Source of the DNA: Hyphomonas sp.
GTDB taxonomy: Bacteria; Pseudomonadota; Alphaproteobacteria; Caulobacterales; Hyphomonadaceae
Assembly (NCBI RefSeq): GCF_013823385.1
Contig: NZ_PNMA01000001.1
Location: 288,135 to 352,134, forward strand
DNA length: 64,000 bases
Reading direction: 5' to 3'
Below the pieces are notes generated by a model. It was not told the DNA's origin. It saw nothing but the letters and a program-made list of their open reading frames with translations, and searched no databases. Positions 5,367 to 61,925 of the stretch are shown in pieces; position 1 is the first letter of the stretch, and each line of letters begins with the position of its first letter. Position numbers and translations under genes: made by a program.

Positions 5367-6572
5367 ATGCAGATCCTGATTGCAGGCGGCGGTATCGGCG
5401 GACTGACAGCGGCGCTGGCTTTCCTCAAGGCAGGGCATTCGGTGACGGTGCTGGAAAAGGCACCGGAGATTGCCGAAGTGGGCGCGGGACTGCAGATCAG
5501 CCCCAATGGCATGAAGGTGCTCGATGCGCTGGGCGCATCGGCGCGTGTGGCGCGGGATGCGTTCCGTCCGCGTGCGCAGGAACTGCGTCTTGGGCGCAGC
5601 GGAGCACGGATATTCAGTGTGCCGCTTCGCGAAGCGTCGCAGGCGCGGTGGCGGGGAGAGTATCTCCATATCCACCGGGCGGACCTTGTTGAGGCCCTGA
5701 AAGCCTGCGTGACCGACCGCGCCCCGGATGCCGTGCGCCTGGGCGCGACGGTGACAGGATACGAGAATACCCCTGGCGGCATTGTTGCCCTCCTCAGCAC
5801 GGGCGAGCGCGTGGCGGGCGACCTCCTGGTGGGCGCCGATGGCATTCATTCAGCGGTGCGAACGCAGATGCTGGGGCCGGACAAGCCGCGCTTTACCGGC
5901 AATGTTGCATGGCGGGCTGTGGTGCCGGTTTCCAAGCTGGGAGATTATCCGCCCCCGGAGACTGCCTGTGTGTGGGCCGGAAAACGCCGCCATGCGGTGA
6001 CCTATCGCCTGCGGCGGGGGAGCCTTGCGAATTTTGTCGGCGTGGTCGAGTGCGCTGAGCCCGGAGACGAGTCCTGGACCTCCGTGGGCGCGCGGGAGCA
6101 GGCACTGAAGGACTTCAAGGGCTGGAACCCCGTGATCCAGCGGATCATTGATGAGGCGCCGCTGCTGCTCCGCTGGTCGCTCTATGATCGCCCGGAGATG
6201 CCGAAATGGCAGGATGGCCGGGCCGTGCTGCTGGGGGATGCGTGTCACCCGATGTTGCCGTTCATGGCGCAGGGCGCGGTGATGGCGATCGAGGACGCCT
6301 ATGTGCTGGCGCGGGAAGTGGGCCGGACGCTGGCGAAGGGCGACGGGGCAGGCATTGAAGACGGGCTCAAGGCTTATGAAGCGATCCGCAAGCCGCGGGC
6401 AACGCGCGTGCAGAATGTGGCGCGGGAGAATGCAGCGCTGTTTCACCGGTCCAACCCGCTGTATCAGCTTGGCACCTATGGGCCGATGTGGGTGGCGGGA
6501 AAGTATCTGCCGTCAATCGTGCATGGGCGGCATGACTGGCTTTACGGCCATGATGTGACCGGGCCCGGCTGA
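5367..6572 (+). CDS. FAD-dependent monooxygenase (salicylate hydroxylase-like)
   Basis: GGGIGG Rossmann motif, GADGIHS, and LLGDACHPMLPFMAQGAVMAIEDA. Confidence 0.9.
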   Translation: MQILIAGGGIGGLTAALAFLKAGHSVTVLEKAPEIAEVGAGLQISPNGMKVLDALGASARVARDAFRPRAQELRLGRSGARIFSVPLREASQARWRGEYLHIHRADLVEALKACVTDRAPDAVRLGATVTGYENTPGGIVALLSTGERVAGDLLVGADGIHSAVRTQMLGPDKPRFTGNVAWRAVVPVSKLGDYPPPETACVWAGKRRHAVTYRLRRGSLANFVGVVECAEPGDESWTSVGAREQALKDFKGWNPVIQRIIDEAPLLLRWSLYDRPEMPKWQDGRAVLLGDACHPMLPFMAQGAVMAIEDAYVLAREVGRTLAKGDGAGIEDGLKAYEAIRKPRATRVQNVARENAALFHRSNPLYQLGTYGPMWVAGKYLPSIVHGRHDWLYGHDVTGPG

Positions 6573-14246: not shown

Positions 14247-15458
14247 TTATCCGAGGGCGAGAGTGTTGAGCTGCATGATGGGCAGCATGATCGAGAGGAC
14301 GATGGTGCCGACAACGCCGCCCAGGAAGATGATAATCAGCGGTTCGAGCAGGCCGAGGGCAACATTGGTGGCGGTTTCAAATTCGTCTTCCAGAAAATCG
14401 GCAGCGCGGTTCATCATGGCGGGGACGTTGCGGGCTGCTTCGCCGCTGGCGACCATGTGGACCATCATCTGGGGGAAGACCCCGCTGGATTTCATGGCCG
14501 AAGAAAGGGCGCCGCCGCGCTGGACGGTTTCGAGGATCTGATCGGCTGCATCCCGAAACACCATATTTCCCATGGCGTTACGCGCGCCTGACAGGCTTTC
14601 GAGGACGGTGGCGCCGGCGCCGGACATGGTGGCGTGGATGCGGGCAAAGCGGGCCGAGGCGACCTTGCGGTTCATGTCGCCGAAAAAGGGGATGCGCAGG
14701 GCGAAGGCGTCCCAGCGGCGTTTCCAGGCCGGAATCTTCAGGACTCGCAGGGCCAGGAACACGCCAGCAACGGCCACAACCAGGACAACCAGACCCCAAT
14801 CGCGGACAAATCCGGACAAACCGATGACAAATCTGGTCAGCGGCGGCAATTCCGAGGCCCCGAGCATGGCAAACTGCTCAACGAGCTTGGGCACCACCCA
14901 GACCATGAGGGCCGTCACCATGGCGGTCGCCATGATGCCGAGGATGATCGGATAGATCAGCGCCGAGCGAACGAGGGTGCGCAGCCGGTAGCTGCGCTCC
15001 AGATGGTGGGCGAGCTGATCGAGGACGAGGCCAAGGCGGCCGGAGCTTTCGCCGGACGAGACTACCGCCCGGAAGAGCGGCGGGAAAGCGCGCGGGGCGC
15101 CCCGCATGGCTTCGGCCAGGGTGGCGCCTTCCATGACCTGGGAGCGTACACCGAGGAGCAGGCCCCGCTGGGGCGAGGCGTCGCTGTCACCCGCCGCAGC
15201 GGTCAGCGCCTGTTCGACCGTCATGCCGGAGGACACCAGCACGGCGAGCTGCCGGGTGAGGAGGGTGCGTTCCTTGTCGCTGAGGCGGCCGGTGCCGCCG
15301 AAGCCAAGGGCCTTTTCTCCACGCGCTTCGGTGAGGGAGACGGGTGTCAGCTGGCGGTCGCGCAGCTCGCGGCGGGCTGCGCGGGCGGTATCGGCCGAGA
15401 TGACGCCGCTGGTGCGCCGCCCGTCGGCTGTCAGAGCCTTGTATTCAAACGCTGCCAC
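14247..15458 (-). CDS. gspF: T2SS inner membrane platform protein F
   Basis: AFEYKAL, TRQLAVLVSSG, ALIYPIIL, and LLEPLII. Confidence 0.95.
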   Translation of the reverse strand: MAAFEYKALTADGRRTSGVISADTARAARRELRDRQLTPVSLTEARGEKALGFGGTGRLSDKERTLLTRQLAVLVSSGMTVEQALTAAAGDSDASPQRGLLLGVRSQVMEGATLAEAMRGAPRAFPPLFRAVVSSGESSGRLGLVLDQLAHHLERSYRLRTLVRSALIYPIILGIMATAMVTALMVWVVPKLVEQFAMLGASELPPLTRFVIGLSGFVRDWGLVVLVVAVAGVFLALRVLKIPAWKRRWDAFALRIPFFGDMNRKVASARFARIHATMSGAGATVLESLSGARNAMGNMVFRDAADQILETVQRGGALSSAMKSSGVFPQMMVHMVASGEAARNVPAMMNRAADFLEDEFETATNVALGLLEPLIIIFLGGVVGTIVLSIMLPIMQLNTLALG

Positions 15459-33042: not shown

Positions 33043-34062
33043 ATGATGTATCTGATGATCTTGGCGGGGCTTGTTCTGCTGTTCGTTGGCGGGGAAGCGC
33101 TCGTGCGCGGCTCGGTCAGCGTGGCCCGCAGGCTCAACATCTCTGAGCTTGTCATCGGTCTGACACTGGTGGGATTCGGCACATCGGTGCCGGAACTTGT
33201 CACCAGCCTGCAGGCGGTGGGCCGGGGCGCTGTGGGCATTTCCGTCGGCAATGTGGTCGGCTCGAACGTCGCCAATGTGTTGCTGGTGCTGGCGATTGCG
33301 GTGATCCTGTCGCCCATCATCGTACACCCAAAGGCAATCATGCGCGACGGGCTGGTGATGGTGGCGGCGACGGCGATTCTGTGTGGTCTGCTGTGGTTTG
33401 ACCAGTTCAACCGCATTTCGGGCTTCATACTGCTGGTGATTCTGATCAGCTATCTCGTGATCTCCCTCGTCCTCGACCAGCGGCGCCAGGACGATACGGC
33501 TGTGATGCACCGGGAAGAGGGCGAAGTGGTGGATGCCCAGTATGGTTTGATGCTGGGGATCATCATTGCGGTGGCGGGCCTTATCGGCGTGGTGGCAGGG
33601 GCCAACCTGCTTGTGGAGGGCTCTGTGACCCTCGCCCGGTCGATCGGCATCAGCGAGACGGTGATCGGCCTGACGATCGTGGCGATCGGCACCAGCCTGC
33701 CGGAGCTGGCGACGTCTGTAGTGGCGGCTTTCCGGAAGAAGGCGGACGTGGCCCTGGGGAACGTGATTGGATCTAACATATTCAATATATTGGGTATTTT
33801 GGGTGTTACCGCGCTGGTTAAACCCTTCAGCGTGCGCGGCGATGCCAATGCCGCGGCCCTCGCGGGCACAGAGCCGGTCAGCATCATGAGTTCCATCGAT
33901 ATCGGCGCGCTGGTCCTGTCTGTCGCGCTCTTGTTCCTGTTTGCGCTGACCGGCCGGAAGCTGGCGCGCTGGGAGGGGGCGGTGTTGCTCCTGGGATATG
34001 TCCTCTATATGGGCCTGACCTTCGATCTCATTCCTGTACCGGCGATCCTTTCCAATGGCTGA
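33043..34062 (+). CDS. Calcium/sodium antiporter (YrbG-like)
   Basis: Two alpha repeats, GTSVPEL..GNVVGSN and [14 protein letters not shown]. Confidence 0.92.
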
Positions 34063-34522
34063 CAACCCGATCTATCAGAAACTTGGCCAGCTCGGCCAGC
34101 AGACGGCGCAACCTCAGAGCCCTGAAGAGGCGCAGCTGGAGCGGGTGGAAAACCCTCATTCTGATACGCTTTATCTGACACGGTTTGTGGCGCCGGAATT
34201 TACGTCGCTGTGTCCGGTGACGGGGCAGCCGGACTTTGCGCATCTGGTGATCGATTATGCGCCGGGGCCGTGGCTGGTCGAATCCAAGAGCCTGAAACTG
34301 TATCTGACCAGCTTCCGGAACCATGGGGCATTCCATGAGGAGTGCACTGTTTCCATTGGGAAAAAAGTCTTCGAGTTCACCGAGGCCAAATGGCTGCGGA
34401 TCTCCGGATACTGGTATCCGAGGGGTGGGATTCCCATCGACGTATTCTGGCAGTCAGGCGACGTTCCGAAGGGTCTCTACGTGCCCGAAACGGGGGTCGC
34501 GTCCTATCGCGGGCGTGGCTGA
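34055..34522 (+). CDS. queF: NADPH-dependent preQ0 reductase (type I)
   Basis: [28 protein letters not shown], and PRGGIPID. Confidence 0.97.
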
Positions 34523-34581
34523 GCCGGTCAGATCGCGGACAAATCCGGACAGTTCTGGACAAATCCGGACACTTCCGGTCA
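34521..34581 (+). repeat. Six-unit 10-11 bp tandem array ending in GG(A/T)CA
   Basis: GAGCCGGTCA GATCGCGGACA AATCCGGACA GTTCTGGACA AATCCGGACA CTTCCGGTCA. Confidence 0.85.
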
Positions 34582-35217
34582 CCCGGCGGACTTGGCCGGC
34601 CAGGCTGTGACCAGTCCCGGCAGGTCCGGACGGATACGCTCCTGAGGCTGGGCGGTGGCCGTGCCGATATAGATGAACCCGGCGAGGCGCTCTGTTTCGC
34701 GCAGGCCGAGCAGGGCGTCGACCTCCGGGCTGAAGGTGATCCATTCCGACAGCCAGACGCCGCCCCAGCCGCAGGCATTGGCCGCCAGCAGCAGGTTGTA
34801 GCAGAGGGCGCCGGCCGAGAGTTCCTGTTCCCAGACGGGGGTTCTGCCATCGTCGGTGGGGGAGGAGACGACCGCCACCACCGTTGGGGCGCGCAGCGGC
34901 AGGCCGGCGGCTTCCAGAATGTCGCGTTGTTCAGCGCCGGGCTTGCGGCCGGCAATGTGGGCGAGTTCCTTGCCGAAATGCGCGCGGGCGTCGCCCTGGA
35001 AGGTGATGAACCGCCAGGGGGCCATCTTGCGGTGATCGGGCACGCGCACGGCAATGGTCAGCAGTTCCTGCAATTCGTCCGGGGTGGGCCCCGGCTCGCT
35101 GAGGAAGAGCTTGTTGGCGGATTTGCGCAGGGCCAGGAAGCTGCGGACGGCATTCGCGGGCCTTGCGGCGAGAAGCGGAATGCCTGCGGGCGGGGGATCT
35201 GGGAAGAGCTTGGTCAC
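34579..35217 (-). CDS. Nitroreductase family protein (YdjA-like)
   Basis: RKS, AVRVPDHRKMAPWRF, and WEQELSAGA...GGVWLS. Confidence 0.9.
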   Translation of the reverse strand: MTKLFPDPPPAGIPLLAARPANAVRSFLALRKSANKLFLSEPGPTPDELQELLTIAVRVPDHRKMAPWRFITFQGDARAHFGKELAHIAGRKPGAEQRDILEAAGLPLRAPTVVAVVSSPTDDGRTPVWEQELSAGALCYNLLLAANACGWGGVWLSEWITFSPEVDALLGLRETERLAGFIYIGTATAQPQERIRPDLPGLVTAWPAKSAG

Positions 35218-46503: not shown

Positions 46504-47724
46504 ATGGCCTGGACGAAGACCTATACCGGCGAAGAGCCGGTACGCATCAACAAATGGCTGGCCCAGGAAGGCGTGTGTTCGCGCCGGGAAGCCGATGCGT
46601 TGATCGAAAAAGGCCTTATACAACTGGATGGTAAGCCCGTGACGGTGGCGGGTGAGCGCGTCACCAAGGGGCAGACGTTGAGCCTGACGGACGCCGCTTC
46701 CCGGCGGCTGGACAATCAGCTGTCGGTAATCCTGAACAAGCCGGTGGGGTATGTTTCCGGGACTCCGGAGCCGGGAGAAATTCCGGCGATACGGCTGGTT
46801 ACCGAGGAAAACCTGTCTGGCAGCGCGCATGCTATCCCGCAGCGTTCGAACAAGATGGCGCCGCTGGGACGGCTCGACAAGGATTCGCACGGACTGCTGA
46901 TTCTGTCGGAGGATGGCGTGCTGGCGAAGGCGATCATCGGCCCCCTGAGCGACATGGACAAGGAATACCTTGTGCGGGTGAGAGGCGACATCACGCCTGC
47001 CAAGGTGGCGCTGCTGCGGCATGGGCTGGAACTGGACGGGCGGCAGCTGCGCCCAGCGGAGGTTCAGCAGGAGCGGAACAACACGCTGCGCTTCATCCTG
47101 AAGGAAGGACGCAACCGCCAGATCCGGCGGATGTGCGACCTGGTTGAGCTTAGAGTCCTGGATTTGCAGCGGATTCGGGTGGGCCCGATCCTGCTGGCGG
47201 GGCTGCCGGAGGGCAAATGGCGGCCACTGGGCGCCAAGGAACGGGCCGCCTTGCTGGCAGCCGGCGCCGGGGAAGAGGTGCGCGCGCGCCCACCCCTCCG
47301 CGAGGACCGCCCGCGTGCCAGCGACGGGCCAAAACGCGACAGATCCGGGACAGGCCAGGACAGTTCGCGGACAAATCCGGACAGAAATGGACAATTCGGG
47401 ACAAAGCCCGGACAGGGCCGGACGGATAAGCCCCGCTCCGGACCTGGAGCCGGCCGGGACGGGGCCAGACCCGAACGCAAAGGCCCGAGACCCGACCGGG
47501 ATGGCCCCAGACCAGAGCGTGCCGGCCCCAGACCTGATCGCGCGGGTCCGAAACCAGACCGTGCAGGGGCAAAGCCGCCGCGCCCCGGTGGCAAGCCTGC
47601 CCGGGCGGGCACCAAGCCGGTGGCGGCCGCGCCCAAGGCGGATGGCAACCGGCCCTCCGCGCTGAAAGGTGACAAGTTCAAGCGCACGAAGCTTGCCCCC
47701 AGGGATCGCAAGCCGATCAAGTGA
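46504..47724 (+). CDS. rluF: rRNA pseudouridine synthase, RluF-like, with a long repetitive tail
   Basis: S4 domain (CSRREAD), LNKPVG, GRLDKDS catalytic Asp, and GRNRQIRRM. Confidence 0.8.
   Translation: MAWTKTYTGEEPVRINKWLAQEGVCSRREADALIEKGLIQLDGKPVTVAGERVTKGQTLSLTDAASRRLDNQLSVILNKPVGYVSGTPEPGEIPAIRLVTEENLSGSAHAIPQRSNKMAPLGRLDKDSHGLLILSEDGVLAKAIIGPLSDMDKEYLVRVRGDITPAKVALLRHGLELDGRQLRPAEVQQERNNTLRFILKEGRNRQIRRMCDLVELRVLDLQRIRVGPILLAGLPEGKWRPLGAKERAALLAAGAGEEVRARPPLREDRPRASDGPKRDRSGTGQDSSRTNPDRNGQFGTKPGQGRTDKPRSGPGAGRDGARPERKGPRPDRDGPRPERAGPRPDRAGPKPDRAGAKPPRPGGKPARAGTKPVAAAPKADGNRPSALKGDKFKRTKLAPRDRKPIK
47341..47423 (+). repeat. Eight-unit GGAC array (10-11 bp period) inside the RluF-like tail
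   Basis: AGATCCGGGAC AGGCCAGGAC AGTTCGCGGAC AAATCCGGAC AGAAATGGAC AATTCGGGAC AAAGCCCGGAC AGGGCCGGAC. Confidence 0.8.
47467..47613 (+). repeat. 21-bp/7-aa coding repeat (R/K-P-x-R-x-G-x)7
   Basis: AGACC/AAACC/AAGCC recurs every 21 nt from 47467 to 47614. Confidence 0.85.
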
Positions 47725-61849: not shown

Positions 61850-61925
61850 GCCGGCTTAGCTCAGCTGGTAGAGCATCTGATTTGTAATCAGAGGGTCACG
61901 GGTTCGAGTCCTGTAGCCGGCACCA
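61850..61925 (+). tRNA. tRNA-Thr(UGU)
   Basis: 76 nt; acceptor stem GCCGGCT/AGCCGGC, anticodon stem TCTGA/TCAGA with loop TT-TGT-AA, GTTCGAGTC T-loop, and encoded CCA. Confidence 0.96.

Follow-up and report, generated by a model that had tools for sequence, protein, structure and literature searches.

Origin iterons of plasmids, phages and satellites, such as the lambda ori in gene O and the SaPI ori beside rep, are helically phased short direct repeats with a conserved core, which are read as a row by an oligomerising protein and whose sequence co-evolves with the binder. The "architecture-imparting sequences" KOPS/SRS, Chi and Ter are single words of 5-23 bp, which are dispersed and gene-independent, are oriented from origin to terminus and have an orientation correlated with strand composition. 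REP/BIME elements and REPINs with their RAYT are lineage-specific short repeats, dispersed mostly between genes and often at gene ends, and the REPs themselves are imperfect palindromes moved by a Y1 transposase. The DUS/USS are single 9-12-mers, about 1000-2000 per genome, which have species variants at homologous positions in related genomes and which coding DNA tolerates; to our knowledge, no polar skew domain is known for them. Besides, the operators of winged-helix regulators of the OmpR/PhoB type (Pho boxes and tor boxes) are built of 10-11-bp direct repeats.

Here we describe a row of GGACA words between two convergent genes of Hyphomonas sp., which shares some feature with each of these systems. 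The analysed stretch of DNA, called the window below, is 64 kb long (C1:288135-352134) and belongs to a genome of 4.18 Mb in 172 contigs with 63% GC (G000 below). The best-supported reading of our comparisons is that the row is a putative protein-binding member of a chromosome-wide, positionally conserved and polar family, which appears to be maintained by selection.

The array at the queF-nitroreductase junction

A first-pass annotation of the window had described six 10-11-bp units running from stop codon to stop codon, and direct reading of the sequence confirmed it. Over 56 bases, one GGTCA, four GGACA and a last GGTCA follow each other at distances of 11, 10, 10, 10 and 10 bp, and the array occupies the whole gap between the convergent stop codons (Table 1). 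The recurrence of a 19-mer, TCGCGGACAAATCCGGACA, was also found as described, with exact copies at 14800, 34533 and 47365; shuffled sequence gives a mean of 0.02 matches, and 0 of 100 shuffles reach 4.

Table 1. Coordinates of the array, its neighbours and the other features of the window mentioned in the text
Feature	Position in the window	Strand	Remarks
queF-like gene (PF14489)	34055..34522	+	stop codon TGA at 34520-34522, 3 bp 5' of the array
Six-unit array at the junction	34526-34581	+
Unit GGTCA (first)	34526-34530	+	sequence read
Units GGACA	34537-34541, 34547-34551, 34557-34561, 34567-34571	+	sequence read
Unit GGTCA (last)	34577-34581	+	sequence read
Nitroreductase-family gene (PF00881)	34579..35217	-	stop codon is the TCA (34579-34581) of the last GGTCA unit
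Array-like stretch in gspF	14783..14839	+	antisense to the gene; encodes LTRFVIGLSGFVRDW; carries the 19-mer TCGCGGACAAATCCGGACA
ORF of RluB-like pseudouridine synthase	46504-47724		array in its disordered C-terminal tail
Ten-unit array, 7 exact GGACA	47327..47424	+	carries the 19-mer TCGCGGACAAATCCGGACA; chained as array
tRNA gene	61850-61922		sole Rfam match of the window

Two further details of that annotation stood in part. The pair of CCGGTCA 7-mers at the two ends of the array is present, but it is no target-site duplication, because the left copy reads CCGCTCA in G083 and G044, and the right copy is just the last unit plus the stop codon. The TCCGGA palindromes, from which stacked mini-hairpins had been proposed, exist in this species but are missing from the orthologous arrays of G041, where the spacers end in ..TCT, ..CTT and ..CCC. 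No promoter or terminator pattern was found at the locus and no AT-rich tract at the array, and the Rfam covariance models run on the 64-kb window gave one tRNA match and none at the array.

A chromosome-wide family of phased arrays

In the whole genome, the 15-mer GGACAAATCCGGACA has 79 copies. From one GGACA to the next, distances of 10 bp (281 cases) and 11 bp (60 cases) stand out sharply, while neighbouring distances count about 3-14 cases each. By chaining such words we obtained about 107 arrays of 3-11 units each, on both strands equally, against an expectation of about 4 per 2 Mb in order-4 Markov sequence, i.e. about 8 for the genome. The proposal that the array belongs to a dispersed repeat family was thus borne out, and the genome-wide count against a Markov background, which had been suggested as its check, came out far above chance. 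The repeat also appears to have been called "unnamed" rightly, since literature searches for the array sequence and for Hyphomonas repeats returned no match.

The consensus of the unit is GGACA-[A/G]-[A/T]-T-C-C, in which AATCC is the most frequent spacer and a GC-rich half and an A/T-tract half alternate each 10 bp. When 61 loci were aligned on the commonest 15-mer, only the phased G.CA core was conserved, with conservation decaying from the centre both ways, and no conserved ends, inverted repeats or hairpins were found in this alignment. The single GGACA word is not over-represented in the genome (7195 vs. about 8900 expected from base composition). The arrays are spaced more evenly along the chromosome than random ones (coefficient of variation 0.70 vs. 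0.77-1.27 simulated). Intergenic arrays lie in convergent, divergent and tandem gaps, and the strand of the neighbouring genes has no bias relative to array direction.

To some extent the arrays also reach into coding sequence. The count of 60 genic arrays from a crude ORF caller was too high because of shadow ORFs in GC-rich DNA, as ispD made clear; by a codon-position composition test on both flanks, 13 of the 107 arrays are clearly within coding sequence. The ispD copy (C1:146129) adds no residues, and the gspF orthologues all have 403 aa, with TGTCCGGATTTGTCC kept in six species of the clade. Since the protein length is unchanged, these two copies were written into codons and not inserted, while the copy in the RluB tail (Table 1) and a prophage copy in an ImmA gene (see below) may be insertions.

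A second repeat family of about 870 bp was observed in the same genome. Its copies share 80-90% identity, contain internal modules of about 150 bp and a 130-aa ORF, end in ...CTCCAACGGCGCTCCAG and have no match in Rfam. They include C11:58986-59880, C9:90900-91839, C4:139187-140062 and at least 10 more, many at contig ends, and in four copies a GGACA array abuts the CTCCAACGGCGCTCCAG end.

Conserved positions, conserved core and drifting spacers

Of 80 Hyphomonas species, 12 have three exact GGACA words in a row at 10-bp spacing; nine of these (G000, G041, G044, G051, G077, G079, G080, G083 and G092) have about 20 or more matches, and the pattern was absent from the sampled genomes of the order's other families. 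The junction between queF and the nitroreductase gene has no array in eight species (G003, G006, G007, G010, G011, G014, G020 and G024), and there the stop codons abut. In the orthologous 64-kb region, all three array sites of the window are occupied in G083, G044 and G041 too, with unchanged orientation, including that of the ten-unit array in the RluB tail; G045 has the gspF array only, and none was detected in its region at the RluB site. All four GGACA cores at the junction are identical in G000, G083, G044 and G041, and the 20 spacer positions show 4, 5 and 11 differences.

Two of these relatives, H. polymorpha PS728 (G044) and Hyphomonas sp. NPDC076881 (G083), have about 88% DNA identity to G000. 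We tested 38 of their arrays and located both flanks in G000 for 35 of them. It turned out that the orthologous site holds an array in all 35 cases, which, together with the empty junction of the eight array-less species, answers the comparison of orthologous loci in close relatives that the first-pass annotation had asked for. In the 35 array pairs, substitutions hit 6 of 711 core positions, 88 of 556 spacer positions and 202 of 1369 positions of the adjacent edge sequence; the GGACA core and its phasing are about 20 times better conserved across species than the spacers. This indicates that the GGACA word and the phasing are under purifying selection: with 35 of 35 sites fixed and the core changing so much less than the spacers, the pattern is not that of a decaying or homogenised selfish repeat.

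The spacers differ between species in the manner of dialects: they end in ..TCC in G000, and G041 and G051 have ..TC[A/G] or ..G at their ends. GGACA rows are nearly lacking from G045, the sister of the array clade, which has a private word, CCGTGTNNTTTTGAGG, with 18 copies on C2 (for example at 2484060, 2561037, 2613584 and 2696284) and 0 in the 79 other Hyphomonas genomes. In the compared 467 kb, four of four copies of this word sit exactly at positions orthologous to G000 arrays and in matching orientation, and short phased G[A/T]CA units adjoin the copies. The sites of the arrays therefore predate the present word, and the recognition word appears to co-evolve with a putative reader protein.

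Arrays and the local GC skew

Within 5 kb on either side, 87 arrays of G000 have G>C on the GGACA strand and 10 the opposite (p=2e-16), a link that weakens as the measured interval grows. In the frame of the array, the skew starts from about 0 beyond -5 kb, has risen to 0.09 at -1 kb, ranges over 0.06-0.09 as far as +5 kb, amounts to 0.05 from there to +10 kb and drops to 0.03 at 10-20 kb. The skew domain is thus polar, with its onset 1-2 kb upstream of the array and a fading 10-20 kb downstream, and the downstream minus upstream difference is +0.048 (paired Wilcoxon p=1e-7). G041 replicates the profile (-0.003 upstream vs. +0.073 downstream, p=2e-9), and the arrays of other Hyphomonas species, sampled over 3 kb on each side, have positive array-strand skew both sides. 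The link of arrays and skew is a correlation, and it holds in the two species with a measured polar profile, G000 and G041.

The third codon position shifts by about +0.12 in skew whichever strand the gene is on, so that the effect is of the mutational type. The coding strand has no net skew, and 47% of the genes are co-oriented with the local skew. Along the chromosome of G000 the skew is patchy, in blocks of 20-100 kb that are unrelated to gene strand, and the arrays are often at the upstream edge of a block; the standard deviation is 0.066 per 5 kb, compared with 0.02 in array-less G014, which has a smooth skew over 400 kb. This patchiness agrees with the published failure of GC skew to reveal the origin of H. 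neptunium (PMC6650430).

Contig C1 is colinear with G045 over 375 kb at a DNA identity of about 76-85%, and both the skew pattern and the polar profile are common to the two genomes at orthologous sites. By our estimate, the third positions have probably been largely turned over between them. The orthologous segments of G014 often carry the opposite sign of skew. Fossil inversions as the source of the patchy skew were ruled out by the colinearity of G000 and G045 with their common skew and by the sign reversals in G014. As the pattern is kept in G045 at such identity and is often reversed in G014, it seems to be actively maintained. The arrays as such need not be the cause of the skew, because array-poor G045 has the same skew at orthologous sites; the dependence could also run the other way, or a third factor could underlie both.

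A nine-unit array at C1:360814-360900, 8.7 kb beyond the end of the window, ends directly at a perfect DnaA-box word, TTATCCACA, and the strongest skew of the contig (+0.2) is found in the 10 kb after it.

Arrays and the direction of replication

G041, a single contig of 3,705,021 bp with ftsK near 3.68 Mb, is presumably H. neptunium ATCC 15444. In a study of H. neptunium ATCC 15444, the origin could not be read from GC skew ("no clear result") but was mapped by marker frequency, as a single origin at about 0 degrees (PMC6650430). Measured against this mapped origin, and given the presumed identity of the genome, the G041 arrays stand mostly against the forks over 0-1 Mb and 2.0-3.0 Mb and with the forks over 1.85-2.0 Mb and 3.0-3.7 Mb. 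Since the array blocks mismatch fork direction, no origin-to-terminus rule applies; on that identity, the arrays and the local skew are coupled to each other and not to fork direction.

Phased arrays outside Hyphomonas

Matches to GGACAAATCCGGACA-N5-GGACA were also found in Bryobacterales, Blastocatellia, Polyangium, Tepidisphaerales and Gemmatimonadaceae, further in Chloroflexota, Bacteroidota, Victivallales, Rubrivivax and a Ruminococcaceae genome, and in 20 IMG/VR contigs. No neighbouring gene recurring across the phyla was found, and there was no link between arrays and skew in these other phyla. Since the same rows occur in Acidobacteriota, Myxococcota, Planctomycetota, Bacteroidota and phages, a DNA-binding module behind them may be widespread and unusually constant in its specificity.

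In Bryobacterales, where a genome has at least 10 matches, the array is within a longer repeat with a promoter-like TTGACG-N16-TATAGC. For example, the MAGs OZ252030.1 and CBDBHI01 (L174-L246) contain dozens of repeat copies of at least about 150 bp which are conserved on both sides of the array, in the order sigma-70-like promoter, three or four GGACA units and a conserved 3' part with a hairpin. Genes for group II intron reverse transcriptase lie beside some of the copies (L205, L224 and L225). At an orthologous locus of three Polyangium species (L177, L200 and L212), four or five GGACA units come first, an inverted unit across TCGCGA next and 21-bp tandem repeats (AGGTCGCGTGCACGCGTCTCA) last.

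Among the viral contigs, 19 related gut prophages (L262-L281 except L272) carry four phased GGACA units inside an ImmA/IrrE metallopeptidase gene. This array encodes ...PDKSGHFRTASDR..., and an Xre-type repressor and an integrase adjoin it. The remaining one, the 42-kb viral contig L272, has inverted arrays at 6140-6255, namely TGTCC five times, a short palindromic centre and GGACA four times, inside the 3' end of a gene for a PriCT_2+AAA_25 primase-helicase. They are likely an origin within its own initiator gene.

Search for a reader protein

The linked RAYT which the first-pass annotation had suggested looking for did not turn up: Y1/RAYT (PF01797) was not found in the six array-rich genomes G000, G041, G044, G051, G079 and G083. 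An extra FtsK/TraB-like translocase was rejected as reader because every genome has exactly one ftsK. The GTA terminase was rejected as well, since PF03237 is undetected in array-rich G041 and gives a weak match in G044, while many array-less species have it. An excisionase-type reader with HTH_17, an idea prompted by Arcticibacter and Blastocatellia loci, has no clade-specific member; the candidate is SoxR, and the match in G000 is a serine recombinase. No homologue of the L272 primase-helicase was found in the 80 Hyphomonas genomes.

As for the GTA genes themselves, an RcGTA-like head-tail cluster of G000 (C25:4314-15227) begins at the portal gene and is without terminase genes. The only Terminase_6N gene of this genome lies on another contig (C21:6260-6862), and none was detected in G041.

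Interpretation and alternative explanations

We consider that the array may act as a functional cis-element, in which GGACA words stand one helical turn apart. Such geometry would suit the head-to-tail cooperative binding of a sequence-specific protein on one face of the duplex, as in iterons. Selection holds the core word and the phasing of about 100 rows at fixed, evenly spread positions in a sub-clade of Hyphomonas. The spacer drifts as a species-specific "dialect", and so does the entire motif in one sister species. Of the readings offered by the first-pass annotation, the one-face protein-binding array gained support from the roughly 20-fold better conservation of core and phasing, which no structure or gene relationship explains. 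The comparisons establish a real family whose positions and orientation are conserved, whose core is under purifying selection, which is independent of genes and which is coupled to a polar skew domain. That the selected row is a putative one-face binding array linked to a polar, apparently replication-independent DNA process seems to us about evenly balanced.

A bound array could launch or orient a one-directional DNA transaction, for which helicase or translocase loading, strand-displacement synthesis and strand-biased DNA exchange (export or import) are candidates. The process would run 10-20 kb downstream, apart from chromosome replication, and would thereby imprint the strand asymmetry. 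We infer this orienting role. An iteron-like precedent exists in the inverted GGACA arrays within the primase-helicase gene of L272. Against it, all searches for a candidate reader (RAYT, extra FtsK, HTH_17 and phage primase-helicase) were negative, the skew pattern is the same in array-poor G045 at orthologous sites, the skew domain starts 1-2 kb upstream and not at the array, and the arrays of other phyla have no skew link. It is possible but doubtful that the arrays are start or orientation signals of a replication-independent one-directional DNA transaction. If they were, 10-20-kb domains of asymmetry would lie on about 1/3 of the chromosome (about 100 arrays, 4.2 Mb), the failure of GC skew to show the H. 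neptunium origin would be explained, and the word would co-evolve with its protein.

The polar skew could also be read the other way round. Architectural or regulatory putative binding sites, for a nucleoid protein, as curved DNA or as an insulator, would merely follow a pre-existing asymmetry with their orientation. The skew pattern of array-poor G045 at orthologous sites, the alternation of GC-rich and A/T-tract halves each 10 bp, which favours bending, and the missing skew link in other phyla are in favour of such sites; a passive follower, however, is not expected near the upstream edge of the domain (the paired p values given above, 1e-7 and 2e-9), and G045 is not truly site-less because its own motif CCGTGTNNTTTTGAGG is at the same sites, so we hold this explanation to be unlikely. 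A replication-linked polar site oriented from origin to terminus, namely a Ter-like fork barrier in permissive orientation, a KOPS/SRS-like guide or a Chi-like hotspot, is distinctly unlikely. The orientation of the arrays does track GC skew, the usual proxy of fork direction, and a Chi-type model predicts a short upstream and a long downstream zone. But all three readings are weakened because array direction is uncoupled from the forks over 0-1 and 2.0-3.0 Mb of G041 (with the identity presumed as above), and, besides, genes are not co-oriented with the local skew, isolated GGACA is not over-represented, there is one ftsK only per genome, and from the helical phasing it follows that the words, in contrast to Chi, are recognised in double-stranded DNA. 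Very unlikely, in our judgement, is a signal for packaging or uptake, either a pac-like site for the small terminase ring of a GTA or phage-like particle or a DNA-uptake signal, where the polar skew would arise because the strand imported downstream of the site is always the same. The domain length fits headful packaging, which proceeds in one direction over tens of kb, a GTA head-tail cluster exists at C25, four to ten phased repeats match the wrapping of pac DNA by a terminase ring, and species dialects at conserved positions resemble those of uptake sequences; the distribution of PF03237, described above, and the onset of the skew upstream of the array speak against it.

The remaining explanations need no polar process. 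A selfish mobile repeat without host function, like a MITE, REP or BIME or a minisatellite born by slippage, which spread intergenically, would account for the many dispersed copies, for the abutting stop codons of the empty locus in most of the genus and for the occurrence of the unit in many phyla and prophages, suggesting horizontal spread; moreover, none of the six reading frames is closed by the array, and coding sequence contains some of the copies. The first-pass annotation had also named a MITE/REP-like element, which did not hold up: the flanks are unconserved beyond the phased core, there are no terminal inverted repeats, conserved ends or target-site duplication, the duplicated 7-mer being itself not conserved, there is no Y1/RAYT gene, and 35 of 35 positions are kept between species that share about 88% identity. 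The core changes about 20 times more slowly than the spacers, and such sparing of the core alone is not expected from neutral decay or gene conversion; we regard a selfish repeat as highly improbable. The third suggestion of that annotation, an RNA 3'-end structure, belongs to the extremely improbable class of RNA-level elements, i.e. a 3'-end stabiliser, stacked mini-hairpins or a protein sponge in transcripts. UCCGGA-CANN-UCCGGA can form 6-bp hairpins in this species, and Bryobacterales arrays come after a promoter-like sequence, but the folding of the array is not superior to that of shuffled sequence (z -0.65 and -1.86), the palindrome and with it the pairing potential are lost in G041 while the core is kept, no Rfam family matches, no terminator or promoter pattern is present, and array direction is unrelated to gene direction.

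If the reading of the arrays as selected, putative binding rows holds, a sub-clade of a model budding bacterium would have about 100 undescribed, conserved and polar protein-docking sites, which coincide with a landscape of strand composition that overrides the replication signal. The arrays would then offer a testable handle on the published puzzle of GC skew in H. neptunium (PMC6650430). They would also point to a polar DNA process in a host bacterium in which chromosome transfer through the stalk is still mechanistically unexplained.

Comparison with known systems

The arrays resemble OmpR/PhoB-type operators in their repeat length, and the core, which reads TGTCC on the other strand, resembles the TGTCA of the Pho box. 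They differ in having up to 11 units, in lying many times between convergent genes and in having no fixed relation to a promoter; beside the queF array there is no promoter-like site. Compared with REP elements, they are direct repeats without hairpin or RAYT, and unlike REP/BIME they were immobile over the divergence examined. Terminal inverted repeats and target-site duplication, as in MITEs, are lacking, and there is no presence/absence polymorphism at 35 of 35 sites at about 88% identity. The single words of DUS/USS do not form phased rows as in Hyphomonas.

Tandem phased rows also distinguish the arrays from the single words of KOPS/SRS, Chi and Ter, and array orientation follows the local skew and not the skew of the replication arms. 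Iterons are like the arrays in being helically phased direct repeats with a conserved core, but Hyphomonas has about 100 single-orientation arrays across the chromosome, at positions conserved between species, and they stand without an adjacent initiator gene, an AT-rich unwinding element or a DnaA-box cluster. For the oligomerising protein that reads iterons as a row and co-evolves with their sequence, we propose a counterpart in Hyphomonas.
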